The notes under the pieces were generated by a model, which was given only the letters and a program-made list of their open reading frames with translations, had not been told where the DNA came from and made no database searches. From contig CAWGLD010000001.1 of assembly GCA_963823335.1 (NCBI GenBank), positions 1,088,001-1,152,000 on the forward strand: DNA of 64,000 bases. The letters are read 5' to 3'. Positions 1-39,946 of this stretch are shown in pieces; position 1 is the stretch's first letter; each line of letters begins with the position of its first letter. The position numbers and the translations under genes were made by a program. The DNA is from an uncultured delta proteobacterium. Lineage in GTDB: Bacteria > Desulfobacterota > Desulfobacteria > Desulfobacterales > B30-G6.

Positions 1-613
1 GGTAGATATCAAAGCGCTGGTGGTGGTGGAAGATAAGACACCCTGCCTGGAGCCGATTCAGGAGGCCGCTAAAAAACTGGAGAGAATGGGCTGTCGGGCC
101 ATTGTCGCAGAGTGCGGTTATTTTGCTCTTTTTCAGAAGGAAATAGCCAAACACGTGAATGTCCCGGTTTTCATGTCCAGTCTCTTACAGGTCCCATGGG
201 CACAGCAACTCGTGGGCCCAGATAAGCTCGTTGGTATCCTGGTGGCCGAAAAAATGTATCTTACGGATGCACATCTCGCCGCAGTTGATGTCGAGATCGG
301 CAGCAACTATGTGATCGCCGGTGCTGAGGATGAATATCACTGTCCTGAATTCGAGCACCTGTGGAGCCAGTCAAAACGGACGGACCCGCCGGGTGCCAAT
401 TATGAAAAAGCAGAATTCGATTTTGTTGCTGCAGGTGTCGACTTCTATCGTAAACATCCGAAAATGAGTGCCATGGTACTTGAATGTACAGGATTTCCCC
501 CCTTTGCCAGAGCACTTCAGCGTGAGATCAACATTCCTTTGTTCAGTTGGGGAACACTTCTCGATTTTGCCTACGGCATCAGCGTCCACCGCGATTATTA
601 CGGACATGTTTGA
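1..613 (+). CDS. Asp/Glu/hydantoin racemase superfamily protein, 5'-truncated by window edge
   Basis: Frame open from the window start; two Cys motifs AIVAECGYF and MVLECTGFPPF typical of the racemase superfamily. Confidence 0.75.
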   Translation, partial: VDIKALVVVEDKTPCLEPIQEAAKKLERMGCRAIVAECGYFALFQKEIAKHVNVPVFMSSLLQVPWAQQLVGPDKLVGILVAEKMYLTDAHLAAVDVEIGSNYVIAGAEDEYHCPEFEHLWSQSKRTDPPGANYEKAEFDFVAAGVDFYRKHPKMSAMVLECTGFPPFARALQREINIPLFSWGTLLDFAYGISVHRDYYGHV

Positions 614-807
614 ATCGTCCACTATAAACATGCTTGAGCAATACAGGGAGTCGCGGCGATACGAAGAGAAAATGTCACGCTATACCGTTTGCCAGAATGA
701 CGTTCCGAAACTGCGTCGGCAAATAACCTCAAACAACAGTTATAAAAGCCCCAAGAATCCTTTTGGCCGAAAACTGGCAGGAGAGCGACCTTTTCAAAAG
801 GAGTAAA

Positions 808-2028
808 ATGATGGATTTCGGAGCGCCTCACAAAGAGAACTTTTTAAGATATCTTGAAAATGAAACAACTGCCTTGAAGGAAAGCGGTCTTTACAAGACA
901 GAACACGAGATTACCACTCCCCAGGCAGTGGAAATTACCATTCAAGATGATAAAAACTGTATCAACTTCTGTGCCAACAACTATCTTGGCCTCGCCAATC
1001 ATCCGGAGTTGATCAAGGCGGCACAGGACGGTGCAGGGCGATACGGGTTTGGCATGGCTTCTGTGCGGTTTATCTGTGGCACGCAGATACTTCATAAAGA
1101 CCTGGAAGCGCGCTTGAGTCGATTTCTGGGCACAGGGGACACCATTCTGTACTCTTCCTGTTTTGATGCCAATGGAGGTTTGTTTGAAACCATTCTTGGC
1201 CTGGAAGATGCTGTTATTTCAGATGAATTGAATCATGCATCCATCATCGATGGTGTTCGGTTATGTAAAGCCATGCGTTTCCGATATAAGAACAATGATA
1301 TGGATGATCTTGAAGCAAAACTTCGGGAAGCAGATAACGCAGGTGCCCGCTTCAAACTGATTGCCACCGATGGTGTCTTTTCCATGGACGGTATCATCGC
1401 CAATTTAAAAGTTATTTGTGATCTTGCCGACCAATATGGCGCCCTGGTCATGGTGGACGATTCTCATGCGGTGGGTTTTATGGGTAAAAATGGCCGCGGC
1501 ACACCGGAGTTTTGCGGTGTTGAAGACCGGATCGACATCCTGACCGGCACATTGGGAAAGGCCCTGGGGGGGGCGTCCGGGGGGTATACCAGCGGGAGTA
1601 AAGAACTGGTTGCCTGGCTGCGTCAGCGATCTCGGCCTTACCTGTTTTCCAACACCCTGGCACCCATGATTGCCGCAGCGTCTCTAAAAGTGCTGGACTT
1701 GTTAGACGAGAGCGATGAGCTTCGTGTCAAACTGATAAAAAACAATCAGTACTTCAGAACAGAAATGGAAGACCTGGGTTTTAACCTGGTACCGGGAGAG
1801 CATCCCATCATTCCAATCATGCTTGGTGATGCCAAGCTCGCATCGGAAATGGCCGATCGAATGCTAAAAGAAGGCATCTACGTTACCAGTTTCAGCTATC
1901 CGGTTGTCCCCAAAGGCAGGGCCCGCATTCGGACACAGATGTCTGCCGCTCACGAGAGACACCATCTGGACAAGGCTATCGCAGCTTTTGCAAAAGTGGG
2001 CCGTGATCTGGGTGTCATTTCATCATAG
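808..2028 (+). CDS. kbl: Glycine C-acetyltransferase (2-amino-3-ketobutyrate CoA ligase)
   Basis: [31 protein letters not shown] (PLP Lys), [19 protein letters not shown] before ATG 808. Confidence 0.95.
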
Positions 2029-2131
2029 ACGCGGAAACGTTACATCACATAAATCGCGAGGTTATACTATCGTGCAAAACCGGGTTTTTTAAGCCCGGGA
2101 ATCAATTCTTTTTTCCTCACCGGAGGATAAT

Positions 2132-3163
2132 ATGAAAGCGCTTGTAAAGGCAAAGCCGGAACCGGGTGTTTGGCTCTCAGATGTGGCCGAACCGGATGTC
2201 GGTATCAACGATGTGTTGATCCGGGTTCATAAAACCGCCATCTGTGGCACGGATGTCCATATCTATAACTGGAATGCCTGGGCCAGGAAAACAATTCCCA
2301 TCCCCATGCATTTTGGTCATGAATTTGTTGGTAAGGTGGTGGACACCGGTCAAAATGTTCACGATTTCAAACCAGGTGATATCGTGTCGGGTGAAGGACA
2401 CCTGGTTTGTGGAAAATGTCGCAACTGCCTGGCCGGCAGGAGACATCTGTGTATGAAAACCAGCGGTGTGGGTGTCAATCGACCGGGTGCCTTTGCTGAA
2501 TACCTGAGTATTCCGGTTACCAATGTCTGGTACTGTGACCCAAAGATCCCCATGGATATTCTGGCATGTTTTGACCCTCTGGGAAATGCGACCCATACCG
2601 CCCTCAGTTTTGATTTGCTGGGAGAGGATGTTCTTATCACCGGCGCAGGTCCCATTGGATGCATGGCCGCGGCCATCGCCAGGCACGCAGGAGCAAGGCA
2701 CGTGGTTGTCACCGATGTAAATACCTATCGTCTTGGGCTGGCAAAATCCATGGGAGCCACCATGACCCTGGATGTACGTAAAGAAAAAATTGAAGATGCC
2801 CAGGCGGCTCTGGGTATGAAGGAAGGGTTTGATGTGGGCATGGAAATGTCCGGCAACCCTGAAGCGCTTCAAAATATGCTTTCCAACATGTGTCACGGCG
2901 CCAAAATTGCACTTCTGGGAATACTTTCGCCGGAAACGACCATTAATTGGGATTTTGTCATTTTCAATGGTTTGACCATCCAGGGTATCTATGGTCGGGA
3001 AATGTATGAAACCTGGTATAAGATGACCGTCATGATTCAATCGGGTTTGGATATTCAGCCGATCATCACCCATCGATATGATTTCAGCGAGTACGAAGCC
3101 GCCTTTCAGGCAATGCGCTCCGGCCAATCAGGAAAAGTGATTTTAAACTGGTTTAGTGATTGA
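2132..3163 (+). CDS. tdh: L-threonine 3-dehydrogenase
   Basis: [34 protein letters not shown]; adjacent to kbl. Confidence 0.95.
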
Positions 3164-3241
3164 ATTTTAGGAACAGCTATTTTATAGAGGATTCTGATAA
3201 ATGCGAGAGGTCCCACAAACCCGAATAGGAGATATCTAAAC

Positions 3242-3877
3242 ATGAACGATCTGTATGAAAAAATGGCCCAGGAGTTGATTACAGGAAATGTAGTGGAGGT
3301 CAAGAAGCTGACCCAGGAAGCCTTGGACAAGGGGGCTAATCCAAAGGAAGTGCTCGACAAAGGATTGTTGGCAGGTATGGAAGTTGTGGGTAAACGTTTC
3401 AAGGCTGGGGATATGTTTATTCCGGAAGTGCTGCTCTGCGCCAGAACCATGCATGCCGCCATGGATATTCTCAAGCCCCTTCTGTCGGATGCCGATGCAG
3501 CCGGGGCAGGTACCGTTGTTATCGGAACAGTAGAAGGAGACTTGCATGATATTGGAAAAAATCTGGTGGCGATGATGCTCCAGGGGGCAGGCTTCAAGGT
3601 CATCGATCTGGGTGTCAATATCAAGCCTCAGGGATTTGTCGATGCCGTCAAAGAACACAAACCCAATATCCTCGGCATGTCAGCACTTTTGACGACCACC
3701 ATGCCCAAGATGGCGGAAACCATCACGGCGCTCAAGGAAGCCGGTATTCGCGACCAGGTAAAAATCATGGCGGGTGGTGCACCTGTAACCCAGGATTTTA
3801 TCGAAAAAATCGGCGCGGATGCCTATGGTGCAAACGCTGCGTCCGCATCTGAAAACGCCAAAGCACTTATTGCCTGA
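3242..3877 (+). CDS. Methyltransferase cognate corrinoid (B12-binding) protein
   Basis: GTVEGDLHDIGKNLV (DxHxxG), MSALLTTTM, GGAPVT; N-terminal cap FIPEVL. Confidence 0.92.
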   Translation: MNDLYEKMAQELITGNVVEVKKLTQEALDKGANPKEVLDKGLLAGMEVVGKRFKAGDMFIPEVLLCARTMHAAMDILKPLLSDADAAGAGTVVIGTVEGDLHDIGKNLVAMMLQGAGFKVIDLGVNIKPQGFVDAVKEHKPNILGMSALLTTTMPKMAETITALKEAGIRDQVKIMAGGAPVTQDFIEKIGADAYGANAASASENAKALIA

Positions 3878-3897
3878 TCATTCTCTTTAATTAAACA

Positions 3898-5481
3898 ATG
3901 ATTACTCTCCTCGATTATGGCGCAGGTAATGTCCGAAGCGTTATCAACGCCATCGAAAAGCTGGGCGAGACCGTCCGGGTTGTAAAAAAGAGCCAGGATA
4001 TTCTATCCGCTGAAAAACTCGTTTTCCCCGGTGTGGGCAATTTTGGAAACATGATCCATATATTGAACAAAAAACAGTATATGGATCCCTTGAAAATTTA
4101 CCTGCAAAACAATCGACCGTTTTTGGGTATCTGCCTGGGCCTGCATGCCTTGTTTGAAGAGAGCGAAGAAGCCCCCGGTCTCAAGGGGCTCGGTATTTTC
4201 AAAGGGTGTGCCCGCCGATTTCGTGTGAAGCAATCAGTCCCTCACATCGGATGGAACGGTATCAAGGTGGAACAATCGTCCATCCTGTTTGACGGGTTAA
4301 AAGGTGATGAAAAGTTCTATTTTGTTCATTCCTACTATGTCGACCCCACTGATGCATCGGTTGTCATGACAACCACGGACTATGGCATAGAATTTGTCAG
4401 CGGTATCCAGAAGGGCAATATTCTGGCCACACAATTCCATCCTGAAAAGAGCGGTTCTGCGGGGCTTACACTCCTGAAAAATTTCATTCAAAAAGACAGC
4501 CAAGCGACATCACCCGCGATTCGGCCTGTGAAAACAAAGCTTGCCAGACGGATTATTGCCTGCCTGGACGTTCGATCCAATGATCAGGGTGATCTCGTGG
4601 TAACCAAAGGGGATCAGTACGATGTACGGGAAGAAGGGGCGGTCAGAAATCTTGGCAAACCAGTAGAACTTGCCCAACGATATTACGATGAATGCGCCGA
4701 TGAAATCACGTTTTTGAACATTACGGGATTTCGGGCTTTTCCTCTCGAAGATATGCCCATGCTGGAGGTCTTGAAGCAGACTTCCAAGACGGTGTTTGTG
4801 CCGCTGACCATCGGCGGCGGCATTCGGGATTATACAGATAAAGACGGCCGGCAGTATTCCGCACTGGCGGTAGCCGAAGAATATTTCAGGTCAGGTGCCG
4901 ACAAGATCTCCATTGGAAGCGATGCCGTGTATATCGCCGAGACCTATCTGAAAACAGGCGTAAAGACTGACAAAAGCTCCATAGAGCAGATTTCAAAGAT
5001 ATATGGCAACCAGGCGGTAGTCATTTCCATTGACCCCAGGCGTGTATACGTTCACACCTCCGATGCCGTGAACCACCCTGTTATCGAAACCCGAATACCC
5101 GGTCCGGACGGTGAGACCTTGTGCTGGTTTCAATGTACCGTCCAAGGTGGAAGAGAAGGCCGGGATCTGGATGCCATCACGCTTGCCAGGGTGTGTGAAG
5201 TTCTGGGAGCCGGTGAAATATTGCTTAACTGCATCGACAGGGATGGTACCAACATTGGTTTTGATATCGAGTTGATCAATGCGGTCAAGCAGGCTGTAAG
5301 CATTCCGGTGATTGCCTCGAGTGGTGCCGGATGTGTTGAGCACTTCCAGGAAGTGTTCGAGGAGACAGATGTCGAATCAGCCTTGGCGGCAGGTATCTTT
5401 CATCGAAGAGAGGTCCCCATTTTTCAGGTAAAAAATTTTCTAATGAGCAAACAGGAAATCCGTCCTTGTCCCGGTTTTTAG
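3898..5481 (+). CDS. hisHF: Bifunctional imidazole glycerol phosphate synthase (HisH-HisF fusion)
   Basis: N-terminal DYGAGN, GICLG, QFHPEKS; C-terminal RIIACLDVR, VTKGDQYDVRE, GGGIR, ALAAGIFH. Confidence 0.92.
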   Translation: MITLLDYGAGNVRSVINAIEKLGETVRVVKKSQDILSAEKLVFPGVGNFGNMIHILNKKQYMDPLKIYLQNNRPFLGICLGLHALFEESEEAPGLKGLGIFKGCARRFRVKQSVPHIGWNGIKVEQSSILFDGLKGDEKFYFVHSYYVDPTDASVVMTTTDYGIEFVSGIQKGNILATQFHPEKSGSAGLTLLKNFIQKDSQATSPAIRPVKTKLARRIIACLDVRSNDQGDLVVTKGDQYDVREEGAVRNLGKPVELAQRYYDECADEITFLNITGFRAFPLEDMPMLEVLKQTSKTVFVPLTIGGGIRDYTDKDGRQYSALAVAEEYFRSGADKISIGSDAVYIAETYLKTGVKTDKSSIEQISKIYGNQAVVISIDPRRVYVHTSDAVNHPVIETRIPGPDGETLCWFQCTVQGGREGRDLDAITLARVCEVLGAGEILLNCIDRDGTNIGFDIELINAVKQAVSIPVIASSGAGCVEHFQEVFEETDVESALAAGIFHRREVPIFQVKNFLMSKQEIRPCPGF

Positions 5482-5529
5482 AGAACTGTACGATGATGAT
5501 TCTTTCTAATTAATTTCAGGGATGCAACA

Positions 5530-6564
5530 CTATCGGTTCGGTTTGATAACCGTTCGCACTTGACCTTTGAATTGTTCGAGCTCTTCGAGGACCTTGTTGA
5601 TAGCGTCGGCATCCAGGGATACGGAATCTGTGATGACATGAGAAAGATCAATTCTGCCCTGGCGCAAAAACTCCAGAAGAATCGGCAATTCCTCTAGAAG
5701 GTGATCTGAACAGCCGATAATTTCAACCTCCTTACCCAGCAATTCCCGGTAGGAATCAACCTCGAACGGGGATTCAGCGATGCCTGCCAGGGCGGCCCGC
5801 CCGAATACACCCAGACAACGAACCGCCTGCTGCATGGTTTCCGGCAATCCGATAACCTCCAGAGAAACATCAACACCCTTTCCCCGGGTTTTTTGATGAA
5901 GTGTTTCAACCGGGTCGCATGCCGAAGCATCCACCGGGAGGGCACCATATGTCTCAGCCGTTGCTAATTTTTGCGGACTGATATCGATGGCAAAAACAGC
6001 CGAGGCGCCCATGGCGTAGGCCAGTTGAATGGCGGACATACCCAGACCTCCGGCACCGAAAACGGCAACGGTTTCGCCGGCACTCAATCGGGCCTTGCGC
6101 AGCGCATGAAAGGAGGTGGATGTCGAACACATGAGAACCGCACCCTGTTCAAAGGAAACTGCATCCGGGAGGGGAACGGCATTCCGTGCCGGAACCGCAA
6201 TGTACTCTGCATATCCTCCATCCCGATGTTTTCCGATCATCGTGCCTGTCACACAGAACTGTTCCCGGCCTTGTCTACAGTAATCACAGTCGCCGCAGGT
6301 CAGCAGATAATGAAGGCTGACCCTTTCCCCGACGCGGTCATTCGATACGCTGGTGCCAACCTTTTCAATGAGGCCGGCAACTTCATGTCCCAAGGTCTGG
6401 GGCAAAATACCCACCGGAGACTTGCCTGCCCGGTAGTGCACGTCCGAGTGGCAGATACCGGCTGCCATCACGCGAACTAGGACATCGTGTTCTACCACAG
6501 CTGGAATGGGGACTTCCTGTTCCTGTAGTGGTTTTCCAATTTCCACCAACCTGACGGCTTTCAT
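5530..6564 (-). CDS. Zinc-dependent alcohol dehydrogenase family protein
   Basis: GICHSD, GHEVAG, CGDCDYC, GAGGLG. Confidence 0.9.
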   Translation of the reverse strand: MKAVRLVEIGKPLQEQEVPIPAVVEHDVLVRVMAAGICHSDVHYRAGKSPVGILPQTLGHEVAGLIEKVGTSVSNDRVGERVSLHYLLTCGDCDYCRQGREQFCVTGTMIGKHRDGGYAEYIAVPARNAVPLPDAVSFEQGAVLMCSTSTSFHALRKARLSAGETVAVFGAGGLGMSAIQLAYAMGASAVFAIDISPQKLATAETYGALPVDASACDPVETLHQKTRGKGVDVSLEVIGLPETMQQAVRCLGVFGRAALAGIAESPFEVDSYRELLGKEVEIIGCSDHLLEELPILLEFLRQGRIDLSHVITDSVSLDADAINKVLEELEQFKGQVRTVIKPNR

Positions 6565-6607
6565 GACGACTCCTTTTTTTCACCTAAACACTCAATTTAG
6601 ATATCGT

Positions 6608-7357
6608 TTATGATGGTATTGTCTCCATACTCGCGAATTTTGGCTCGTGAAGCGGGATTAACACGTCTGCCATTTTCTTGACCGTTGTCATGATGTCATA
6701 GGCTTCATAGGTGTTCACATGGGTTCCAGGAGGTATGACATCCATCTCCATGGCGCGGATTTCTCTTGGGGGGTTGAAATTCTCATCGATAACACAAAAG
6801 CCGGTGATGGCGGCGCTTCCCTTTTTCGTGTCAATGAACACCGTCATGCCGCCTTTCGTGTGGACGGGGGTGTGCATAACGCTTATCCCGGGAACGATTT
6901 CCGTATCCCGGGAAAGGGATCTGACCTGGCCGTTATCTTCAACGTCTTCAATATAATCTTCCAGGTAGCGGTAATCCAGGGGGTGCGGATTGTGAATACT
7001 TTCCAGTTCTTTTTCGTGAACAAAAATTTCGGCATTGCTGCACTTGTAGTCATTTTCACAATGATCATTGTGCAGGTGGGTATGGATTACAATATCGATG
7101 ACTTCTGGTGTGAGCCCCCATCGGGCAAGCCCCTCCTCGAAACTGTATATCCTGCCATTGATGGCGGTCTCCCTTTCTTTTGACTGGATCGGGCTCATCT
7201 CACCGGTGTCGACGAGTATTTTTTTTTCTCCTCCTTCGATATACCAGCAATAGATGGGGATGGTATAGGTTTCACCGTAGCCATGCTGGTAGGTCATCAT
7301 GGTTTTGTCGAAAATTTTTGTGCCCATTACGATTGGATGTATTTTAAATTTTGGCAT
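6608..7357 (-). CDS. MBL-fold metallohydrolase, N-acyl homoserine lactonase-like
   Basis: LVDTG, HTHLHNDH (HxHxDH), HTPVHT, C-terminal IPLHE. Confidence 0.8.
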   Translation of the reverse strand: MPKFKIHPIVMGTKIFDKTMMTYQHGYGETYTIPIYCWYIEGGEKKILVDTGEMSPIQSKERETAINGRIYSFEEGLARWGLTPEVIDIVIHTHLHNDHCENDYKCSNAEIFVHEKELESIHNPHPLDYRYLEDYIEDVEDNGQVRSLSRDTEIVPGISVMHTPVHTKGGMTVFIDTKKGSAAITGFCVIDENFNPPREIRAMEMDVIPPGTHVNTYEAYDIMTTVKKMADVLIPLHEPKFASMETIPS

Positions 7358-7456
7358 ACTGTAACATTCCTTAATATAAAGACTTTTTATGTGACAAAGA
7401 TGCAGCCATTTGTACGCTTCTGGCGTAGGGACCGGCTTTATTTGATCTGTTGACGG

Positions 7457-8857
7457 TTATTCCTTGATGCAGGCTAAAACATTTCCAATAAAGGCTTCGT
7501 GGCTCCAGGAATCATCGTGGGTGACACCCAGCCTCACGATGACGATATCACGTGACGGTATGATCGCAACGATCTGGAAATTGAAGCCACCCAGATAGGC
7601 CATGTCTTTTGGAAGCGATGGATACAATGTGTCTTCCGACTGGTCTTCTCGCCCGGCATTTAGCCAGAATTGTGCACCATACTTCCCTTTGGGTGCCTGG
7701 GGCGTCGGTGTCAGGGAATAATTCACCCAGCCTTCCGGCAGGATACGCACACCGTTCCAGACTCCGTCGTTCTTTATAAAAACGCCGAACCTGGCCCAAT
7801 CTCTGGCCGTGGCAAACATATAACTGGAGCCCACAAACGAACCGGATGCATCTGCTTCGATGATGGCTGAGTACATGTTGATGCGATCAAACAGTTCTCT
7901 TTGTGCAAAACTAATGACAGCGGGCAGAGAGCCACCAACTGTATCACGAACGATCCTGGCTAAAATGTTGGTTGTTCCACTGGAATAATACCATTCTTGA
8001 TCCGGTTTTGCCCTCAGGGGTTTTGCCGCGGCAAAGTCGGCCATGCTTTTTGATTTGTAAAGCATCTGGGTGGCATCTTTGAAGGGTGCATAGACCTCCT
8101 CGAATTCGAGTCCACTGGACATGCGAAGCATTTGATCGAGGGTTATGGCCCCTCTTTCATCACCAGGTGTCTGCCAGGCATCAACAGGCGCCGGCTGCAT
8201 GATGTCGAGTTTGCCTTTCCCTACCAGTATGCCTATCAGTGCATTGGTTATGCTTTTTGTCATGGACCATCCCAGCATGGGTGTTTGTAGGGAAAACTGC
8301 GTTTCATATTTTTCGGCAATGACCCTGTCCCGGTAAACGACGACAATCGCTTGCGTGTTTCGCATCGTGTCTGCTCCTGGTTCCTGAAATGCTTCTTCGA
8401 TTACCGCCATCAGCTTGTCCTGATCGACATTTTTAGGGATGCTGCCATAGTCAATGGTTTCACCCTGAGGCCAGTTTTCGTCGGACACTTTCTGCAGCTC
8501 CAGTTTTAGTCCCTTGCTCTGTTCCAACAGGTCATCGCGCGATGAGTCGACTGTCAAGGTGCACCCACAGCCGTCGCGATAAACGGCTGTGGCTTTGCTT
8601 AAAAACCCGAAAGCGGTAGCCGTCACTGTTTTATTGTCTCTGTCCACAGTGTTTGTGATGAATCTGAAAAGTGGATGTGTCGGGAGTACGTCATTCTTAA
8701 AGACCAGATCAGGATTCCTGTCTGCCAGAAAAACCTGAGAGCAGAGATATTTGGATGAATATCCAGAACCGACGATTAGGGCTGAATTTAGAAAATAAAT
8801 GCCTATGCCGATAGCAACGGCAAAAAATAATATCATTACTTTCAGGATTTTTTTCAT
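7457..8857 (-). CDS. Serine hydrolase (beta-lactamase class C-like), N-terminally anchored
   Basis: WSMTKS (SxxK), LRMSSGL, WYYSSG; hydrophobic N-terminus; GAGGTG RBS before ATG 8857. Confidence 0.85.
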   Translation of the reverse strand: MKKILKVMILFFAVAIGIGIYFLNSALIVGSGYSSKYLCSQVFLADRNPDLVFKNDVLPTHPLFRFITNTVDRDNKTVTATAFGFLSKATAVYRDGCGCTLTVDSSRDDLLEQSKGLKLELQKVSDENWPQGETIDYGSIPKNVDQDKLMAVIEEAFQEPGADTMRNTQAIVVVYRDRVIAEKYETQFSLQTPMLGWSMTKSITNALIGILVGKGKLDIMQPAPVDAWQTPGDERGAITLDQMLRMSSGLEFEEVYAPFKDATQMLYKSKSMADFAAAKPLRAKPDQEWYYSSGTTNILARIVRDTVGGSLPAVISFAQRELFDRINMYSAIIEADASGSFVGSSYMFATARDWARFGVFIKNDGVWNGVRILPEGWVNYSLTPTPQAPKGKYGAQFWLNAGREDQSEDTLYPSLPKDMAYLGGFNFQIVAIIPSRDIVIVRLGVTHDDSWSHEAFIGNVLACIKE

Positions 8858-9122
8858 TAGCACCTCTTTTTTAATTGAAGAATCTCGCGGCCTCGACAAA
8901 CCGGAATTTTCGACAAGTTTCGGTGATAGCGCTCACTGTTGCAGTTCGGGTGTTTTTATTTTTATCCGAATAGGCTATGATCAAATACGTTAGGTATTTA
9001 TTCGGAATCCATGATTGGAGCATATCGCAAAAAAGAGAATATTTGGAATGGCTACCCATGTCAAACAGTTTACTGCTCATCCTTTGATCAATTATACACA
9101 TGGGTAGTGAGAGAATTTCATT

Positions 9123-12403: not shown

Positions 12404-12482
12404 AAGGTGTTTTGCCGGGAGCAAATAAAAAGTAACCGTCGGGAGAAGGAAATCGGCTTCTGTTGACGGAGGGGCTTCTGTT

Positions 12483-12662
12483 TTATTCTGTTTGTTTCAG
12501 TTTCTCGATCTGTATCAGAAGGGCGTCATACGCATCCTCGAGTGTCAAAAGATCCATCATTACCGGTGGTTTCACGGAGTGAGCCGGTAGTCGTTTTTTT
12601 GTTTCGGTGATTTCTTCATCCAATTCTCGAAGTCTTTTTTTAAGCGTTTCCAATCGGTTCAT
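12483..12662 (-). CDS. Small coiled-coil hypothetical protein
   Basis: GGAGG RBS before ATG 12662; helical sequence containing RLPAHSVKP; follows the FadR gene on the same strand. Confidence 0.6.
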   Translation of the reverse strand: MNRLETLKKRLRELDEEITETKKRLPAHSVKPPVMMDLLTLEDAYDALLIQIEKLKQTE

Positions 12663-26877: not shown

Positions 26878-26911
26878 ATATCCTCAACAGGTAGCAATGG
26901 AAGGAGTTATC

Positions 26912-29329: not shown

Positions 29330-29410
29330 ACATTTTCTATAAAGCACCAACCCGAAGTGGGCTTTTGATAAAATCGTGAAACATTTTTTAACCCGTGGAA
29401 AGGTTCGCCG

Positions 29411-30916: not shown

Positions 30917-30946
30917 CCCGAACATTTCATGAAATATTCCGGGCTA
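30914..30946. repeat. 33-bp imperfect palindrome TAACCCGAACATTTCATGAAATATTCCGGGCTA
   Basis: Seen directly; TA at both ends; its first 17 nt recur with 16/17 identity at 45444-45460. Confidence 0.6.
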
Positions 30947-30989
30947 AGACGAGTATTTGAGGACATTTGCCGAAAGACGTTCGGTCTAA

Positions 30990-32447: not shown

Positions 32448-32619
32448 AATGCCTCCTCAAGGATCCATGCGCCATTCGCATCGCGTATAAATATTAATCT
32501 TTCTCATATCGTACAACGGAAATACTATCCATCAGACGTTATAGCACCTTCGTATTGACATTGGTTTTTCGATATTCAATAGTTATTCACCTCCAAACTT
32601 TTCAAGAAAGGAGAACATA

Positions 32620-33012
32620 ATGAAGATACTTGTGGGTTATAACGACTCGAAGGCAAATGAAAATGTAATAAAGTGGGCTCTTAAACATGGACTCGCATTT
32701 AAAGCAGATGTCCATATCATAACCTCCTTGGAACAAAGTCCTACCTTGAAAAGAGAGCAGATCGATAGAGCTGAAAGCAAGCTGGAAAATCTTAAAAAAC
32801 CTTTCAAAGCAGATGGGATTGTCTGTGAAACCCGCACATCTGTCAGCTACAATTCTCCCGGAGAAGATCTGGTCCGATTTGCCAAAGAAAATGGTATTGA
32901 TGAAATTATTATCGGTGTTAAAAAAAAATCAAAAGTGGGAAAAATAGTTTTTGGGTCCACCGCTCAATATGTCATCCTGAAAGCACACTGCCCGGTTCTT
33001 GCTGTCAAATGA
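32620..33012 (+). CDS. Universal stress protein
   Basis: MKILVGY, IIIG..KKSKVGKIVFGSTAQYVIL..HCPVLAVK. Confidence 0.92.
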   Translation: MKILVGYNDSKANENVIKWALKHGLAFKADVHIITSLEQSPTLKREQIDRAESKLENLKKPFKADGIVCETRTSVSYNSPGEDLVRFAKENGIDEIIIGVKKKSKVGKIVFGSTAQYVILKAHCPVLAVK

Positions 33013-33344
33013 ATATCGAAAACAACCTCATTGTACTTGTCACAGCGATACGCCATTTTTTAGAAGGTCTCAACAACGTTCATTTGAAACCATTTCTGGC
33101 TAACTGGTCTTCCACAACGTGTGTGACAGGTTCTTTCGCGCCGAACAGTCTTCCCGTTCTTTCCTATAACAGGAAGATCCCTCTGGCAGCGGGGTGATCA
33201 AGATTGGATCTATCGATCTCCTGGGCTGCCCATATGTCATGCCTCCTGGGAGTCGCATGACATGAGAACAGAAGCGTATCGTTGCTTGCCCTCTATCTCT
33301 GGCGGGGAGGTGACCTGGTCCAGAAATCACTTCTGACGCCATAG
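33009..33344 (+). pseudogene. Decayed DMSP-lyase-family (DddQ/DddL-like) cupin gene
   Basis: Three joined frames read ...PNSLPVLSY / TGRSLWQRGDQDWIYRSPGLPICHASWESHDMRTEAY / LLALYLWRGGDLVQKSLLTP*; central part missing. Confidence 0.65.
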
Positions 33345-33382
33345 CCGGCCGGTTTAAAATTCAGGATTACCCACAGTTGCGA

Positions 33383-35500
33383 TCAATCGGCACCTAACTG
33401 CCGTATGTGGAGACGTTCCGCTTCATCCGGTACATGGATTACAGGCGCCACCTTTTTCAACTCTTCCATGGAGATATGACATTTGATGACATGACGGTCT
33501 GCCACTGTTTGCTCCGGTGGGAGCTCATTATCGCAAACATCACCAATTCGCCGGTGGCAGCGGGTACAAAATGGGCAGCCTTTGGGCGGATTCATGGCGC
33601 TGGGCAGGTCGCCTTCCAGCACAATTTCACGCTTGGTTACTTCTGGATCAGCGATGGGTACTGCTGATAATAGCGCTTCTGTGTATGGGTGATAGGGTGG
33701 TGCGAAGATCTCCTCCGTTGTCCCTCTTTCAAAGATATGTCCGAGATACATGACCACAATGCGATCCGATATGTAACGAACAACACTTAGATCGTGACTG
33801 ATGAATAGCAATGTTGTTTTATGTTTGCGCTGGATATCCATGAGCAGTTCTGTTACAGCTGCTGCCACTGAAACGTCCAGTGCGGAGACCGGTTCATCTG
33901 CAATGACCATGCTCGGGTTACCTGCAAAGGCCCGGGCAATACCGATACGCTGTTTTTGCCCCCCTGAAAGTTGTCTGGGTTTTCTAAAGTAGAAATCCCT
34001 TGGAAGTTTGACCGTGTCCAGCAGCTTCATAACGCGATCGAATATTTTTTTCTTGTCAGATTCCACACCAAACTTCTTGATTACCCGTGAGATCTGACCA
34101 CCGATACTGTGGCTTGGGTTCAGGGTGTCAAACGGATTTTGAAATACCATCTGAAGTGAGCTGATCTGTTTGGCGCTGCGATCTCGAACGGCGATGTCGG
34201 AAATGTCCTTGCCTTTGTGGCGCACCTCGCCCTCGGTACTTGTCTCCAATCCCATCAGCACCTTGGCAAAGGTTGATTTACCACAACCGGATTCACCAAC
34301 AATCGCTACCGTTTCACCCTCTCTGGCAGTAAAGTTCAACGCTTCATTGGCTTTTACATAACGCGTTCGTTTCCCGCTAATTAAAGCCCGCAGCGAGCTG
34401 TCACGAATCTCATAGTACTTTTTCATGCCGTCTACATTGAGAACCCGTTTACCGAGTTTAAGTGCCTCTTTGACTTCATCAACCGGCGCCGCAAGGCGAT
34501 GATCGATTTCCTTATAGCGTAAACAGCGTACGCGATGGTCGGCCGCACTATCTTCAACATGTTCCATTTTGAAATGCTCAACGTCACACAGTCCGGGTTT
34601 GAAATGATCACAGCGCGGGTGGTAATAACAGCCCTGGGGTCGATCGAATGGTAACGGGAGTTGACCCCGGATCGGTTTTAGCGGGGCAGCGTTCTTGTCA
34701 GCCGTCGGCAACGGAATACAGGCAAATAGGCCGTGGGTGTAAGGGTGCTTTGGCCAGGTAAACAGCGAGTTAATCGTTCCTTCTTCTACAACTTCACCGG
34801 AATACATCACGAATACCCGGTCACATGTTTCCAGAATCAGTCCCAGATTATGGGAGATATAGATCTGGGAAGTGCCATATTTCTTGCTGATTTCAGCCAC
34901 CAGTTTGACGATGCCGGCTTCAACCGTAACATCCAGGGCGGTCGTGGGCTCATCCAGCAGTAACAGAGATGGATTTGACAAAAGCCCCATGGCGATAACC
35001 ACCCTTTGTTGCTGCCCACCAGATAGCTGATGCGGATATGAGTCCATCAGCCGTTCAGGATCAGGCAGCTTGACATCCCCGAGCATCTGCACAGCCCTCT
35101 GTCGCGCTTCTTCTTTGGAAATGCTCTCATGCGCAAGCGGCACCTCTATAAGCTGGGTGCTTATTTTGAGGCTTGGATTCAAAGAGGCAAAAGGCTCCTG
35201 GTAAATCATTGCGATCTCCGATCCTCGAATATGGCGTAGCTCATGCTCCGACAGTTGGGTCAAATCACGGCCTTTGAAGGTGATACTGCCGCTCTTGATA
35301 CCGCCGTTGGCGCCCATGTGTTGCATGATCGCCATGGCAACGGTAGATTTTCCGCAGCCCGATTCGCCGACAATACCGATCGTTTCACCGGGCTTTACCG
35401 TCAACGAAAAATCCACCACCGCAGGAATCTCTCCTGCCCGGGTATAGTAAGAGATGCAGAGATCCTTGCAGACCAGCACCGGTGCTTGATCGTCGTTCAT
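33383..35500 (-). CDS. Dpp/Opp-type ABC transporter, fused double ATPase
   Basis: Two GESGCGKS Walker A motifs, two LSGGQ signatures, Cys-containing C-terminal extensions. Confidence 0.93.
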   Translation of the reverse strand: MNDDQAPVLVCKDLCISYYTRAGEIPAVVDFSLTVKPGETIGIVGESGCGKSTVAMAIMQHMGANGGIKSGSITFKGRDLTQLSEHELRHIRGSEIAMIYQEPFASLNPSLKISTQLIEVPLAHESISKEEARQRAVQMLGDVKLPDPERLMDSYPHQLSGGQQQRVVIAMGLLSNPSLLLLDEPTTALDVTVEAGIVKLVAEISKKYGTSQIYISHNLGLILETCDRVFVMYSGEVVEEGTINSLFTWPKHPYTHGLFACIPLPTADKNAAPLKPIRGQLPLPFDRPQGCYYHPRCDHFKPGLCDVEHFKMEHVEDSAADHRVRCLRYKEIDHRLAAPVDEVKEALKLGKRVLNVDGMKKYYEIRDSSLRALISGKRTRYVKANEALNFTAREGETVAIVGESGCGKSTFAKVLMGLETSTEGEVRHKGKDISDIAVRDRSAKQISSLQMVFQNPFDTLNPSHSIGGQISRVIKKFGVESDKKKIFDRVMKLLDTVKLPRDFYFRKPRQLSGGQKQRIGIARAFAGNPSMVIADEPVSALDVSVAAAVTELLMDIQRKHKTTLLFISHDLSVVRYISDRIVVMYLGHIFERGTTEEIFAPPYHPYTEALLSAVPIADPEVTKREIVLEGDLPSAMNPPKGCPFCTRCHRRIGDVCDNELPPEQTVADRHVIKCHISMEELKKVAPVIHVPDEAERLHIRQLGAD

Positions 35501-35514
35501 ATGTTGCTTCCCTC

Positions 35515-36408
35515 CTAATCACGCAATGAGATTTCACGTAGACCGTCTGCCAGTAGGTTAAACCCCAGGATCAACGAAGATATCGCGATGCAGGGAAAGA
35601 GCGTCATGTGCGGAAAAGCCATGGCCATTTGCCGGGTTTCGTTTACCATGCCACCCCAATCAGGATCCGGTGGCGGTAGACCCAGGCCCAGAAAACCAAG
35701 TACACCGATGGTGATAATGACATAACCCAGGCGTAGGCAGGCATCGACAATAAGTGGGCCACGTGCATTGGGTAAGATTTCAACCAGCATTACGCGCCAG
35801 TCTGATTCACCCCTAGTCTGGGCCGCCGCAACATAGTCACGATTGCGAAGATCCAGCACCAATCCACGCACGATACGCATGATCCCCGGTGAGGATGCAA
35901 AAGTGATGGCAATAATGATGTTAAATCCGGATGCGCCGATGGTGGCGATGATGATAATATACAGCACCAATACCGGAAAAGAGAGAATTATGTCTGCTAT
36001 GCGAGACAGGATATCATCCGTCCAGCCGCCGCGATATCCGGCCGCAAGCCCCATGAAAATACCCAAGGTGTAAGCGCAAATTGTTGCGAGGGGTGCATAA
36101 ATCAGCACCGTACGCGAGCCCCAAATAATACGGGACAGGATATCCCGCCCGATATGATCGGTGCCGAGCCAGAATGTGCCGCCGACCTTGACCGCCTCCA
36201 TACCCGGTTTGGCAAACGGTTGGATGGACGAGTTGGGGTCAAACGGTGCAATCAACGGTGCCAAGATGGCAACCAGCACCCAGAATAAAACAAGGAAGGC
36301 CCCCAACATACCGACCCAACTCTCCCGCAACAGAGCAAAAGATTTCAGACCACGCCACAAAGCCGCGCCATATCCAGCCGTGGGCATTTCTGTTATAGAT
36401 GTCGTCAT
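35515..36408 (-). CDS. Dpp/Opp-type ABC permease (DppC-like)
   Basis: LGTDHIGRDILSR, DYVAAAQTRG, LGFLGLG..PPDPDWG. Confidence 0.92.
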   Translation of the reverse strand: MTTSITEMPTAGYGAALWRGLKSFALLRESWVGMLGAFLVLFWVLVAILAPLIAPFDPNSSIQPFAKPGMEAVKVGGTFWLGTDHIGRDILSRIIWGSRTVLIYAPLATICAYTLGIFMGLAAGYRGGWTDDILSRIADIILSFPVLVLYIIIIATIGASGFNIIIAITFASSPGIMRIVRGLVLDLRNRDYVAAAQTRGESDWRVMLVEILPNARGPLIVDACLRLGYVIITIGVLGFLGLGLPPPDPDWGGMVNETRQMAMAFPHMTLFPCIAISSLILGFNLLADGLREISLRD

Positions 36409-36423
36409 GAGTATAAAGCCTCC

Positions 36424-37359
36424 TTAGCTGAAACGGATACGGGGATTGAGAAACGTGTAGCCAATATCGGCGAGGGTTTGCGTCGTAACTGCAACACAAA
36501 CGGCCACCATGGCGCACGCTTCCAGAAGGGCGATATCGTTGTTAAGAGAAGCTTCCAGGATCAGCGCACCAAAGCCCTTGTAAGCAAAGAAAAACTCAAC
36601 CACAATGACCCCTGACAACAGCCAGTTGATCTGCAGCATGATAACTGTGAAGGGTGCGATGAGTGCGTTGCGTAATGCATGTTTTATAATCACCGATTTG
36701 TAGGGCAGACCTTTCAGTACGGCCGTCCGTATATACTGAGAGGTCATTACTTCGGCCATGGATGCCCGGGTCATACGGGCGACATAGCCAAAATCATAGA
36801 CGATCAGAACCATGGCAGGCATAACCAACTGTTTGAACTCGAACCCGCCCGACATGCTGCTGGTGCCCGGCAACCATTTCAGACCGAAGACAAAAAGGGC
36901 GGAGAAAATTACCGCGCTGGCAAATTCCGGCACAGACGTTGTCAAAATGCCGAACACCGAGATAGCTCTATCGAGCTTAGAGCCTTCCTTCATGCCCGAC
37001 AGGACGCCTAATATCAATGATAAGGGGATCATAATCGCAAACGTCCAAAACCCCAATATGGCAGTATTCCATAGCCGGGGTAACATCACATCAGCGACAG
37101 GGCTTTTAAATCGGATGGATTCCCCAAGGTTTCCGGTCGCAAAATTGCCCAGCCACTTCACATAACGTAATATCACGGGTTGATTATACCCGTGTTGTTC
37201 CCGCCACATCTCCCGCTGTTCTTCGTTTGAAAATTGGCCCAGCACCCGGGCTGCCGGATCACCCGTAAGCTCTGTTTCCAGCAACATAAAAAGAATCAGC
37301 GATACGACAAGCATGGTAAAAATCATGAATCCGAAACGCTTTACCACCAAGGTGACCAT
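36424..37359 (-). CDS. Dpp/Opp-type ABC permease (DppB-like)
   Basis: GDPAARVLG, YIRTAVLKGL, HALRNAL, LNPRIR; GGAGG RBS before ATG 37359. Confidence 0.92.
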   Translation of the reverse strand: MVTLVVKRFGFMIFTMLVVSLILFMLLETELTGDPAARVLGQFSNEEQREMWREQHGYNQPVILRYVKWLGNFATGNLGESIRFKSPVADVMLPRLWNTAILGFWTFAIMIPLSLILGVLSGMKEGSKLDRAISVFGILTTSVPEFASAVIFSALFVFGLKWLPGTSSMSGGFEFKQLVMPAMVLIVYDFGYVARMTRASMAEVMTSQYIRTAVLKGLPYKSVIIKHALRNALIAPFTVIMLQINWLLSGVIVVEFFFAYKGFGALILEASLNNDIALLEACAMVAVCVAVTTQTLADIGYTFLNPRIRFS

Positions 37360-37398
37360 ATGGGTGCCTCCTGATATAATGATAGGTTTTGGGGGAGA

Positions 37399-37438
37399 TT
37401 CCAGGGCGGGGAACGTCGCAGCGCTCCCCGCCCCGGAA
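37399..37438 (-). other. GC-rich intercistronic stem-loop after the binding-protein gene
   Basis: TTCCAGGGCGGGGA...TCCCCGCCCCGGAA imperfect inverted repeat; usual position for an mRNA-stabilising hairpin. Confidence 0.55.
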
Positions 37439-37452
37439 TGCACGCTATTTTA

Positions 37453-39120
37453 CTAGGTCAGAGAGACCTTGTGGAAGCGGTAGTATCGGGTTGGATGCAT
37501 TTCAAAGCCCACGACACTGTCACGGACCGCAGTGAATACGGAACGGAAGAAGGGCTGGATTAGAACGGCGTCATCCTGTAGAATTTTCTCAACCTTCTCC
37601 ATTTTGGCCCGGCGTTGTTCAATATTCAGTGTTGATTCTGCCTCGGTCAAGGCCGCATCAAACGCAGGGTTGGCATAACTGGACTCATTCCAGGGTACAC
37701 CGGTGCGGTAGGCCAGACCCAGTACCATGACGGCCAGGGGCCGGTGGGTCCAGGAGGTCAGGCTCAAGGGCGCCTTGGTCCAGACATCCCAATATGATGC
37801 CATGGGCATCACATTCATTTTGATATTGATCCCGGCTTTGGCGGCATCTTCTTTGAGCACGGCAACGGAGTCCTGCTCCCAAACGCCGTCCGTATTCCCC
37901 ACATTGCAGGTCAATTCAATGCCATTGGGGTATCCGGCCTCGGCCAGCAGTTTTTTTGCCCCTGCAATGTCCTGCTTGATCGGCGGCAGGGCAAAATATT
38001 CAGGGTGGATAGTGGCCACATGATGGTGTTCCGCAACGATCCCTAAACCCTGGTGAGCGATATCGAGCTGTCGCTGGGCATCGCAGGTTTTCTGCACGGC
38101 TTTGCGTACGCGGATATCGGTAAACGGCTTCTCGGTAACTTTCATGCGAATAACACCGGTCTGGGTCGATGGTATGTCGACAACCTTGATTCCCGGAATA
38201 TTCTTGGCCGCCTCCAGGGTCGTCAGGTCAAGATTGTAGATGACATCCACCTGCTTTGAAGCGATAGCGGCCAGATAAGCACCGGCATCTTCCCCCAGAT
38301 CAATAATGCGAATCTCATCCAGAAAGACCTCACCGCCCCACCAGGGTTCTTTACGTTTTTTAAGGACAGCCAGTTCACCAACCCTGAACTCGGTGAGGGT
38401 ATATGGACCGGTTCCCACGGGATTTTTGGATAGATCCCCGCCTTCTTTTTCAAAATTTCTGTGAACGATGCCAGTCGGATAATTGTAAAGATTTTCAGGA
38501 ATCGACAACACCGGCGAGTTCAGATTGAGTTGAACCGTATGCCCATCCACTTTCTGCACCGCAGTTTTAGACATGCGTTTGATCATGTTGCCTTTGGCAT
38601 CTTTCTCACCGGTCTCCTCGAGCATGGCATCGAACAGACCCAGATTGGATGACCCGGTTTTTGGATCGAGCCAGCGGGTAAAATTAAACACCACATCGTC
38701 TGCATTGAAATCATCGCCGTTGGACCATTTGACCCCTTTGCGCAGATGGAAGGTCCAGGTTTTCAGATCATCGGATGCCTCCCAGCTGGTTGCCAGAGAT
38801 GGTCGGGTGATATTATCCGGACCGGTCTCTACCAGGTACTCGGTGATATGGCGAGAAACGATGGATTTCTGGGTCCATGAATACGTTGCGGGGTCGGCCA
38901 TTTCTTGCACCTGCATGCCATATTTTAATACGCCGCCTTTTTTCTGTGTGGCGGCTATGGCAGATGAAACAAAACCCGGTAACCCTGCCATACTGTAGGC
39001 TGCCGTTGCCGAAACACCCAGCAACGTGACCGTGCGTAGAAATTCGCGTCGTGAGCACTTGCCGTCAGCTAGAGCTTTTTTCATTTGTTCAACACCAGGG
39101 TGCACTTTTTTTGTCTTCAT
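37453..39120 (-). CDS. Family-5 ABC substrate-binding protein with Tat signal
   Basis: SRREFL twin-arginine motif; [31 protein letters not shown]. Confidence 0.92.
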
Positions 39121-39469
39121 GATGATTTCCTCCTCTTCAATTTATCGGATTGGTAAGAAAGATCCCTGCAGCCGGTATAGACATTTCGCCTGCAGCAATA
39201 TAATAAGGATTAAAATCAATATATTAGATGCGTTGGCAAGACTTGTTAAGTCCCCCAGTATGTAACTAAATTGTTGTTATCAGCGTAATTGCTATCTAAT
39301 TAATTCTATTCAGATGTATTAAAAGCGGGTATGGACTAAATGAGATCCATGCATAACCGCCAGAAAGGCATAACGTTATGCGGTGTAAGGCAGAATGCCA
39401 AACAATAAGTGTATATATTTAGAAAATTAAAGATTTTATGTCAAGCATTTATCCCGGTAGCGACTTGCT

Positions 39470-39946
39470 TTAATTGTACTTGGCCAGATAATCATCCGGG
39501 ATTTGTACGGCCACAACCTTTCCCCTGGCGCAAAGGGTGTCACCGGAGTACAGGTCAATGGAAACCACGACTTTCCTGCCTTTGATCTCATCAATTTTGC
39601 CGCGCATGAGAATTTCCTGCTTGATGGGTACGGGAGCGAGATAATCCACGTGCAGGGATGCGGTTACGAAACGGGAAAGCGGCTCGGTGCCGAGCGTCTT
39701 ACCATCGTTTCTGTGCTTTGCCGCTGAAGCCGTTCCGGCGGCATGACAGTCGATGAGGGAAGCCACCAGACCGCCATACACGAAATTCTGGGCGCCGGTG
39801 TGAAAAGGTTCCGGCTGAAACCGGCAGACGGTCTCGTCGCCATCCCAGAAACTCTTGAGTTGATGACCATGTTCATTCAGTCTTCCACAGCCGTAGCAGA
39901 TGGCAAAATCATCGGGGTAGTAATCTTGAAAACCTTTTTCAGTCAT
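39470..39946 (-). CDS. PaaI/hotdog-fold thioesterase
   Basis: CYGCG..N..G, VYGGLVASLIDCH, VTASLHVDYLAP. Confidence 0.85.
   Translation of the reverse strand: MTEKGFQDYYPDDFAICYGCGRLNEHGHQLKSFWDGDETVCRFQPEPFHTGAQNFVYGGLVASLIDCHAAGTASAAKHRNDGKTLGTEPLSRFVTASLHVDYLAPVPIKQEILMRGKIDEIKGRKVVVSIDLYSGDTLCARGKVVAVQIPDDYLAKYN

Follow-up and report, generated by a model that had tools for sequence, protein, structure and literature searches.

In marine sediments, glycine betaine and related osmolytes rank among the major sources of both carbon and nitrogen, and the textbook anaerobic routes for betaine stop at dimethylglycine or split the molecule to trimethylamine, which feeds methanogens. Can a sulfate reducer strip the remaining methyl groups without oxygen? 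The question is raised by a 64,000-nucleotide stretch of an uncultured Desulfobacterales bacterium (GCA_963823335.1, contig CAWGLD010000001.1), hereafter the window, which spans positions 1088001-1152000 of contig C1 in a genome of 4.37 Mb and 11 contigs that is 93.9% complete. Its first 40 kb encode MttB-family methyltransferases of the non-pyrrolysine (non-Pyl) kind, a corrinoid protein, flavoproteins related to sarcosine oxidase (SoxBDAG) and to dimethylglycine dehydrogenase (DMGDH), and an electron-transferring flavoprotein (ETF). A sequence-only reading of these genes had proposed a complete O2-independent route from betaine through dimethylglycine and sarcosine to glycine, possibly with a branch for dimethylsulfoniopropionate (DMSP). 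The reading that we prefer, and hold with evenly balanced confidence, is that the region is a non-mobile chromosomal neighbourhood of a pyrrolysine-decoding Desulfobacterales sulfate reducer, in which semi-independent modules for the O2-free removal of N-methyl groups have accumulated.

Six-frame open reading frames (ORFs) of the window were scanned against Pfam and NCBIfam, the Pfam scan covering 32 ORFs at E<=1e-5. The host genome carries dsrA/dsrB, pylB, and the gene for the gamma subunit of acetyl-CoA synthase together with MeTr, and its bearer is an anaerobic, pyrrolysine-decoding sulfate reducer of the Desulfobacterales. The nearest public relatives are Desulfobacterales metagenome-assembled genomes (MAGs), with MttB3 identities of 87-93%, and the Olavius algarvensis Delta 3 symbiont (75%).

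The sox-DAO-etf operon

As judged from sequence, the stable core of the neighbourhood is best read as an operon for a Sox-type, ETF-linked dehydrogenase, widely distributed among marine Desulfobacterales. The operon runs co-directionally on the minus strand from 25651 down to 17343, in the order soxB-soxD-soxA-(soxG-like)-DAO445-etfB-etfA, and diverges from an RpiR/SIS regulator gene on the plus strand (25990-26877). Its first gene, soxB (24428-25651), is followed by soxD (24143-24403; 86 aa; PF04267, 83 bits) and soxA (21231-24146; 971 aa), which combines Fer2_4, FAD, SO_alpha_A3, and GCV_T domains. The minus-strand ORF of 216 aa in the position of soxG has a GCV_T match of 22.4 bits, under the cut-off of 25.6, and no match to a SoxG family; it is kept downstream of soxA in relatives, and the soxBDAG set named earlier holds for soxB, soxD, and soxA, with soxG probable. 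The next gene codes for a DAO-family flavoprotein of 445 aa (DAO445; 19146-20483) that stands between the soxG-like ORF and etfB; its identity among genera (77-95%) lies above that of SoxA (62-93%), its best match to a solved chain reaches 36 bits, and its Atlas clusters are described merely as ‘FAD-dependent oxidoreductase’. The operon closes with etfB/etfA (17343-19210). SoxB scores 301 and 293 bits against the beta subunits of the sarcosine oxidase TSOX and 146 bits against the Pyrococcus chain 1y56_B. The presence of etfBA in the operon and the anaerobic host suggest that the Sox complex functions as a dehydrogenase.

The arrangement is kept well beyond the genus. The soxA probe returned 59 loci, 56 of them with a usable soxA match, divided into 7 of the own lineage and 49 distant ones (62-80% identity). 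DAO445-etfB-etfA directly follows the soxG-like ORF in 25 of the 33 distant loci with at least 4.5 kb downstream of soxA (23 by automated count, plus L087 and L099, with a second etf copy), and the sox-DAO-etf order is found in all four close loci with enough flank. Likewise, of the 40 distant loci with at least 3.2 kb upstream, 32 have RpiR in divergent orientation in front of soxB. Genome-wide searches recovered soxA from 8 of 9 genomes of the genus, from 12 of 14 of the family, and, among 16 genomes that each stand for another family of the order, from 3. The carriers include Desulfobacula MAGs, the Olavius Delta 1, 3, and 4 symbionts, one Desulfarculaceae MAG, and one Anaerolineales MAG. 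Two cultured organisms, Desulfosarcina alkanivorans PL12 and Desulfospira joergensenii DSM 10085, carry it as well, which makes the function of the operon directly testable. In one same-genus MAG (L056; G012:C10:38892-41806) the soxA match falls into two pieces, residues 1-395 and 419-971, which may reflect a broken gene or an assembly error.

Part of 17343-27300 is present in twenty public runs, six of which are estuary RNA libraries, and contigs (at least 95% identity) of four of these libraries cover 27-30 of the 30 bins of 17300-37299. This coverage is compatible with transcription in situ, a weak indication since DNA carry-over in the libraries is possible. The contigs of all four libraries skip the 286 bp at 33050-33335, between the Usp gene and the gene for the ABC ATPase; the segment is unique in the host genome, which rules it out as a repeat and makes a strain-level indel probable.

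MttB paralogs and their partners

Three MttB genes lie in the window; as the sequence-only reading had it, they are non-Pyl, and none has an internal stop: MttB1 (10955-12403, plus strand; PF06253, 264 bits), the sequence-divergent MttB2 (29411-30916, plus strand; 72.6 bits), and MttB3 (30990-32447, minus strand; 307.6 bits). A fourth non-Pyl gene (253.7 bits) stands 0.2 kb upstream of the window (L052:18342-19814), preceded by genes for Usp and an Lrp regulator. The host has 21 full-length MttB-family genes, six with one in-frame TAG at the pyrrolysine position, and the gathering of four of the 21 within ~43 kb of 4.37 Mb is above chance. In the pyrrolysine column the four local proteins have T, S, S, and A, as MttB-superfamily proteins without pyrrolysine. 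PMC8318568 and PMC1976440 put large MttB families in Pyl-decoding marine Deltaproteobacteria on record.

The contacts of the betaine methyltransferase MtgB with its substrate are Y97, R312, H348, and F356; according to passages of PMC13080624, activity is lost upon the R312L exchange, and MtcB, MtpB, MthB, and MtyB share R312. Aligned to 9YCE/2QNE by phmmer, MttB3 shows T, W, H, and G in these columns and keeps one of the four contacts. In the alignment of MttB2 with MtgB, A, H, and L stand opposite R312, H348, and F356. A MAFFT alignment of the 21 paralogs, with the [GN]-x-P motif before the site as its anchor, puts W opposite R312 in MttB1 and M in the upstream MttB. Arginine occupies this column in two of the 21 paralogs, neither of them local, in a comparison made at the level of alignment, where another residue could supply the charge in three dimensions. 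Moreover, MttB3 and MttB1 are no closer to MtgB (194 and 168 bits) than to the pyrrolysine enzyme Pyl-MttB 7XCL (196 and 171 bits). The local MttBs more likely have other, uncharacterised substrates.

The corrinoid protein (3242-3877, plus strand) consists of a B12-binding_2 cap and a B12-binding domain (80 and 103 bits), carries the DxHxxG motif as DLHDIG, and passes TIGR02370 (219 > 215 bits). Its best NCBIfam match is MtgC_2 (NF047996), at 249 bits against a cut-off of 370; NF047995 reaches 181 against 310. It lies 7-27 kb from the MttBs and is the sole corrinoid protein on contig C1, with four in the genome. Upstream of it, on the plus strand, stand kbl (763-2028) and tdh (2132-3163), both passing their NCBIfam equivalog models (680 bits > 460; 566 bits > 380); downstream, a plus-strand gene (3898-5481) codes for a fused HisH-HisF imidazole glycerol phosphate (IGP) synthase (hisF 306 bits > 294; hisH 215 > 105). 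The fused arrangement is as in eukaryotic His7. The only hisH/hisF homolog found in the genome, hisHF keeps its position in same-genus MAGs and is probably a housekeeping gene outside the demethylation route. The same may hold for kbl-tdh, which would convert threonine to glycine and acetyl-CoA: further matches in the genome are distant (34% identity for kbl, 21-27% for tdh). However, tdh-kbl adjoins an MttB gene in one of 51 loci (L025).

The methyl transfer system is not contained in the window, contrary to the complete route proposed earlier: searches with Pterin_bind and RACo_C_ter found no methylcorrinoid:tetrahydrofolate (THF) methyltransferase and no RamA there, the nearest MeTr is 305 kb away on C1, and the other matches are on other contigs. 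The genome has three Pterin_bind matches, on C7 (FolP), on C4 (MeTr in the acs cluster), and at C1:1457355-1458218, a stand-alone MeTr (PRK07535, 359 bits > 259). It also has four RamA-like genes (on C4, C5, C7, and C8) and three loci for the P-protein of glycine cleavage. With MeTr, RamA-like genes, and glycine cleavage, the predicted demethylation system is complete at the genome level. At the stand-alone MeTr locus (L112:3355-8487, or C1:1457355-1462487), genes for MeTr, a gamma-aminobutyrate aminotransferase, a paralog of aldehyde:ferredoxin oxidoreductase (AOR), and pylB stand in a row; AOR accordingly accompanies genes of corrinoid methyl transfer at more than one place in the genome.

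The DMGDH-like flavoprotein (26834-29329, plus strand), whose gene precedes that of MttB2, has the domains DAO, FAO_M, GCV_T, and GCV_T_C and scores 603-604 bits against rat and human DMGDH (4pab, 5l46; over residues 28-828 in the match to 4pab) and 311 bits against the Arthrobacter N,N-dimethylglycine oxidase 1pj5. The mammalian enzyme uses ETF, and dimethylglycine oxidase uses O2. The pair of a DMGDH-like and an MttB2-type gene, usually with a second etfBA, recurs in L097, L099, L102, and the host's own C6:83517-89602 (pair at 85882-89602). The etf genes lie 7.6 kb from the DMGDH-like gene in the window and adjoin it in the C6 copy, L099, and L102. DMGDH-like paralogs (34-36% identity) stand beside MttB genes at four places in the host genome, each with a different MttB, which argues for several substrates.

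MttB1 is joined to a tungsten-type AOR (AFOR_N plus AFOR_C; 9123-10958, plus strand) whose end overlaps the start of MttB1 by 4 nt. It scores 311 bits against the AOR 9g7j and 258 bits against the FOR 1b25, which fits general aldehyde or formaldehyde oxidation, and AOR shares a locus with MttB in 12 of 51 loci. Other pairings recur as well: a racemase-family gene adjoins MttB in 10 of the 51 loci and also at C8:5010 of the host, and a DAO445 paralog (52-61%) adjoins an MttB3-like gene in 14. The racemase-family gene of the window (Asp/Glu/hydantoin racemase; 2-613, plus strand, with its 5' end beyond the window edge) scores 189 bits against NF005679, under the cut-off of 231. Pfam and NCBIfam bear out the families that had been assigned to the corrinoid protein, the DMGDH-like gene, etfBA, AOR, kbl-tdh, and the racemase-family gene.

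An ABC importer had been listed, and one is present (33383-39120, minus strand), with a fused DppD/F ATPase, two permeases, and an SBP_bac_5 binding protein (37453-39120; 258 bits); it is of the Opp/Dpp type, not of the OpuA/ProU type known for betaine. The nearest solved relatives of the binding protein are uncharacterised or bind peptides, haem, opines, or nickel. Of the 21 MttB paralogs, 7 have Opp-type components within 10 kb, and MttB3 occurs together with the ABC system of the window (at least 80% identity) in 13 of the 51 loci. In the 93.9%-complete genome there is no match to OpuAC (PF04069) and no tblastn match to the BCCT transporter of Desulfosarcina. The assignment of betaine as the substrate thus loses ground on two sides, R312 and transport. 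The DMSP-lyase-like remnant described earlier was not found: no DMSP-lyase family matched any of the 32 ORFs (Alma1 was not among the comparisons for the racemase-family gene), nothing resembling a DMSP lyase was present in intergenic frames of at least 35 aa, and the DmdA model PRK12486 aligned to the GCV_T domains only, at 78-79 bits against a cut-off of 410. No test lent support to a DMSP branch.

A plastic neighbourhood and its competing readings

The DNA of 1-17300 was compared with the five closest genomes. G004 is collinear throughout and contiguous with the right-hand part, and the collinearity of 1-40 kb comes in pieces in G001, G002, G003, and G005. Gene content varies: MttB1 is missing from G004, AOR from G005, MttB2 from L003, and the stretch 7345/7679-8951 from G001 and G002, while L004 and L006 have another MttB paralog in place of the DMGDH-like gene. 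To the right, collinearity extends over the genes 4HBT, Mem_trans, and aspS in L002, L003, and L005. The GC content is 0.47-0.53 throughout 1-40 kb, Pfam and NCBIfam found no mobility gene there, and the sole island-like trait is the tRNA-Asn at the right end. A mobile genomic island is ruled out by the even GC content, the lack of mobility genes, and flanks collinear in relatives, which together describe a chromosomal neighbourhood with plastic gene content. In more distant relatives the neighbourhood splits into modules, and DMGDH-MttB2, AOR-MttB, racemase-MttB, and MttB-Opp-ABC recur separately; the synteny comparison suggested by the sequence-only reading shows collinearity among same-genus MAGs and not one block across Desulfobacterales.

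From these modules a scheme can be drawn, with the substrates, ETF as acceptor, and any flow between modules inferred from families, gene order, and the conservation and recombination of modules. Opp-type ABC systems would import methylated nitrogen compounds, and an MttB-family enzyme would move a methyl group of a quaternary amine onto the Co(I) form of the corrinoid protein, from which the methyltransferase encoded elsewhere would pass it to THF, with RamA-type activases, likewise encoded elsewhere, holding the cobalt reduced. The DMGDH-like enzyme, the SoxBDAG-type complex, and the DAO-family flavoprotein would then oxidise the remaining tertiary and secondary amines, their folate domains taking up the C1 unit as methylene-THF, and the electrons would flow through EtfAB into the sulfate-respiring chain. 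Lastly, C1 units would be oxidised by the reverse Wood-Ljungdahl pathway, and any glycine would enter glycine cleavage. Glycine betaine, dimethylglycine, and sarcosine form one plausible substrate series, probably not the only one. The genomic context supports demethylation without O2 by a hybrid of corrinoid and flavin/folate/ETF enzymes, and this part of the earlier proposal survives: the two kinds of genes are encoded together, in an anaerobic context (dsrAB, HypD), with etfBA in the sox operon.

Several observations weigh against a working partnership of the modules, even in the loose form that we prefer. MttB1, AOR, MttB2, and DMGDH are singly dispensable in same-genus MAGs. R312 is essential in MtgB, and in its place the four local MttBs carry W, W, M, and A. 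They would have to share a single corrinoid protein, itself lodged between the housekeeping-looking tdh and hisHF and under the cut-off for MtgC_2. The matches of soxA (700<1164) and soxB (398<529) likewise fall under the NCBIfam subfamily cut-offs, and the window has no membrane partner to oxidise ETF. Within 17000-33500, promoter-like sites (23, against 19.1+/-4.8 in shuffles) and terminator-like sites (17, against 16.7+/-4.1) are at chance. Only 7 of the 31 distant loci of at least 15 kb have an MttB-family gene inside the +/-10 kb around soxA, so the modules need not work together; the scattering of genes in relatives, which the sequence-only reading had itself named as evidence to the contrary, is in part what was found.

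A single dedicated and complete pathway, from betaine to dimethylglycine (MttB and corrinoid protein), to sarcosine (DMGDH-like enzyme), and to glycine (SoxBDAG), with kbl-tdh and the importer included, is an unlikely reading in our judgement. All three enzyme classes that it needs lie within 30 kb, the DMGDH-like protein and SoxB are nearest to enzymes of precisely these steps, and the top NCBIfam match of the corrinoid protein is an MtgC family; a BCCT transporter adjoins the sox operon in 11 of the 59 loci, standing upstream of it in the Desulfosarcina group (592 bits in L100), and passages of PMC12478193 and PMC6716910 document the same hybrid route in the aerobe Ruegeria pomeroyi and betaine demethylation by marine Desulfobacterium, respectively. 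However, R312 is missing from all four MttBs and MttB3 keeps one betaine contact in four, the importer resembles binders of peptides, opines, and nickel, neither OpuAC nor BCCT was found in the host genome, the second methyltransferase and RamA lie outside the cluster, the four DMGDH-like paralogs beside different MttBs speak for several substrates, and the cultured Desulfobacterium end at dimethylglycine (PMC6716910, in a passage citing Heijthuijsen and Hansen 1989). Still less probable, and rated low by us, is the opposite view that the genes are neighbours without a shared pathway, in a hot spot that shuffles MttB paralogs and their partners beside housekeeping genes, with the sox-DAO-etf operon serving an N-alkyl amino acid of a different kind, such as N-methylproline, a hydroxyproline derivative, or an opine-like compound. 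Such a view would account for the 24 of the 31 distant loci in which the sox operon has no MttB nearby, for the varying gene content of same-genus MAGs, for the interleaving of hisHF (the only copy of its kind) and of kbl and tdh (distant matches only) with the other genes, and for the Opp/opine-type importer, and the nearby HypD and ornithine aminotransferase hint at proline or hydroxyproline metabolism. Conversely, the folate (GCV_T) domains of SoxA and DMGDH point to N-methyl as the unit removed, SoxB scores twice as high against true sarcosine oxidase as against 1y56_B, and in several unrelated lineages (L069, L078, L080, L087, L096, L097, L099, L102) the sox operon has genes for MttB, a corrinoid protein, or DMGDH as neighbours; MttB, with or without a corrinoid protein, adjoins it in L069, L072, L076, L080, L081, L096, L097, L099, and L102. 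The accumulation of semi-independent N-demethylation modules in one neighbourhood remains our preferred reading.

A more far-reaching combination of claims is tentative and somewhat doubtful: SoxBDAG, the DAO flavoprotein, and EtfAB would form an O2-independent, respiration-linked sarcosine-type dehydrogenase widespread in marine sulfate reducers, through which the dimethylglycine and sarcosine that come from betaine would undergo complete mineralisation in anoxic sediment rather than persist as end products, and the R312-less MttBs, in concert with AOR, racemase-family proteins, and Opp-type importers, would use onium compounds for which an MttB enzyme is not yet known, with uncharged or sulfonium (DMSP) compounds as candidates. 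If sulfate reducers do remove the second and third methyl groups in an ETF-linked manner, more osmolyte carbon would end as CO2 and sulfide and less as methane precursors, and this would explain what becomes of dimethylglycine and sarcosine in anoxic sediments. In addition, the recurrent pairings of MttB with AOR, the racemase-family gene, the DAO flavoprotein, and the Opp-type importer offer handles for assigning substrates in a large and mostly uncharacterised superfamily.

The cluster begins ~3.2 kb before the window, with Lrp, Usp, and the fourth MttB, and ends at the tRNA-Asn (40152-40227, plus strand). Besides the genes discussed, it holds a minus-strand group coding for a Zn-dependent alcohol dehydrogenase (Zn-ADH; 5530-6564), an MBL-fold lactonase-like protein (6608-7357), and a serine beta-lactamase-fold protein (7457-8899), all assigned by Pfam and NCBIfam, a plus-strand Usp gene between MttB3 and the ABC genes, and a 4HBT thioesterase gene (39470-39946, minus strand). 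Between MttB1 and the sox operon, a minus-strand GntR/FCD regulator gene (12708-13421) is followed on the plus strand by genes for an ornithine aminotransferase, a CobW-like GTPase, and a carbamate kinase (13682-17296), a block (12708-17296) that is kept in L053, L055, L057, and L072. The GTPase-like ORF of 443 aa has a borderline cobW match (20.9 bits) and Atlas clusters named ‘putative GTPase’, and its pair with the kinase (14934-17296) stands beside AOR-MttB in a distant Desulfobacteraceae MAG (L027:13468-15700, 62% identity). The list on which the sequence-only reading was based omitted hisHF, Zn-ADH, the MBL and beta-lactamase-fold genes, GntR, ornithine aminotransferase, the CobW-like GTPase, carbamate kinase, RpiR, Usp, the 4HBT thioesterase, and the second DAO-family flavoprotein.

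Upstream of the fourth MttB lie dapL, lysA, and serB-like genes, then the gene for HypD, a glycyl-radical trans-4-hydroxy-L-proline dehydratase, with its activase (L052:3045-6319, or C1:1071045-1074319; NF043068, 1215 bits > 1100), 12 kb upstream of the window, with Fer4 and NrfD genes before it. HypD and the window's ornithine aminotransferase jointly hint at hydroxyproline/pyrroline-5-carboxylate metabolism near the MttB cluster. In the same interval (L052:11776-13895), a 297-aa protein with a weak match to the ADP-dependent serine kinase SerK (55 bits) adjoins a SerB-like phosphatase of the ACT-HAD kind, at a distance of five genes from the fourth MttB; the choline kinase MthK, which works for MthB, is described as a relative of serine kinases (PMC12155760). 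Past 40 kb, housekeeping genes take over (aspS, hisS, PGM, uppP, rtcB, moeA, and others), with a MoeA fused to a PBP-like domain at 54458-56386 adjoining a second moeA, and the end of the window (61521-63998) holds a DDE transposase remnant and an RHS/YD-repeat gene at lower GC content (0.42). Two short intergenic elements, 681-737 and 14892-14935, lie directly 5' of the start codons of kbl and of the 443-aa GTPase-like ORF, respectively; dozens of copies occur over five related genomes, with 9 and 4 in the host genome, and the element at 681-737 has an inverted repeat and a REP-like look. The Rfam scan of the window found one tRNA only, and no cobalamin or other riboswitch.

Comparison with known systems

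Literature searches returned no paper on sulfate reducers with a sox operon linked to ETF or with a route that joins DMGDH and MttB. Pyl-decoding marine Deltaproteobacteria with many MttB paralogs, as described in passages of PMC8318568, are the same kind of organism; the passages concerned contain no sox-etf, DMGDH-MttB, AOR-MttB, or Opp-ABC link, and the word ‘sarcosine’ occurs 0 times in the paper. For anoxic habitats, passages of PMC6716910 and PMC8547467 name betaine demethylation to dimethylglycine or reduction to trimethylamine; marine Desulfobacterium demethylate betaine, in work cited in PMC6716910, and their cultures stop at dimethylglycine (Heijthuijsen and Hansen 1989, cited there). 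A figure legend in PMC8547467 includes mtgB, soxB, and DMGDH among the genes of cold-seep clusters.

With the MtgB/MtgC/MtgA system of Desulfitobacterium hafniense (2QNE, 9YCE), the locus shares the MttB-superfamily TIM barrel without pyrrolysine and the cap-plus-Rossmann corrinoid protein with DxHxxG. Unlike in that system, R312, Y97, and F356 are not kept, Pyl-MttB 7XCL is equally distant, neither MtgA nor RamA is adjacent, and four methyltransferase (MT1) genes go with one corrinoid protein. The nearest metabolic parallel is that of Ruegeria pomeroyi, in which, according to passages of PMC12478193, proteomics and genetics place an MtgBCD step before dimethylglycine and sarcosine demethylation, with the later-step genes often near mtgBCD in marine Alpha-, Gamma-, and Deltaproteobacteria. 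As far as these passages go, both routes would start with a corrinoid step and continue with flavin/folate demethylation, whereas the host studied here is a strict anaerobe, its flavoenzymes are encoded in an operon with EtfAB, and its corrinoid protein is of the methanogen/MtgC type, with nothing to suggest that it also serves methionine synthesis.

The flavoenzymes themselves have counterparts of known structure. The sox operon resembles that of the TSOX SoxBDAG (2GAG, 1VRQ/3AD7) in the order B-D-A-(G), in the match of SoxD to the zinc-finger family, and in the folate domain on SoxA, and differs from it in the additional, conserved DAO-family flavoprotein and etfBA that follow and in scores under the NCBIfam subfamily cut-offs; in an anaerobic host, O2 would be unable to serve as the physiological acceptor of the Sox enzyme. 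Similarly, the DMGDH-like protein has the four-domain architecture of mammalian DMGDH (4PAB, 5L46), with similarity over its full length, but is bacterial, paired with a divergent MttB-like gene, and one of four paralogs.

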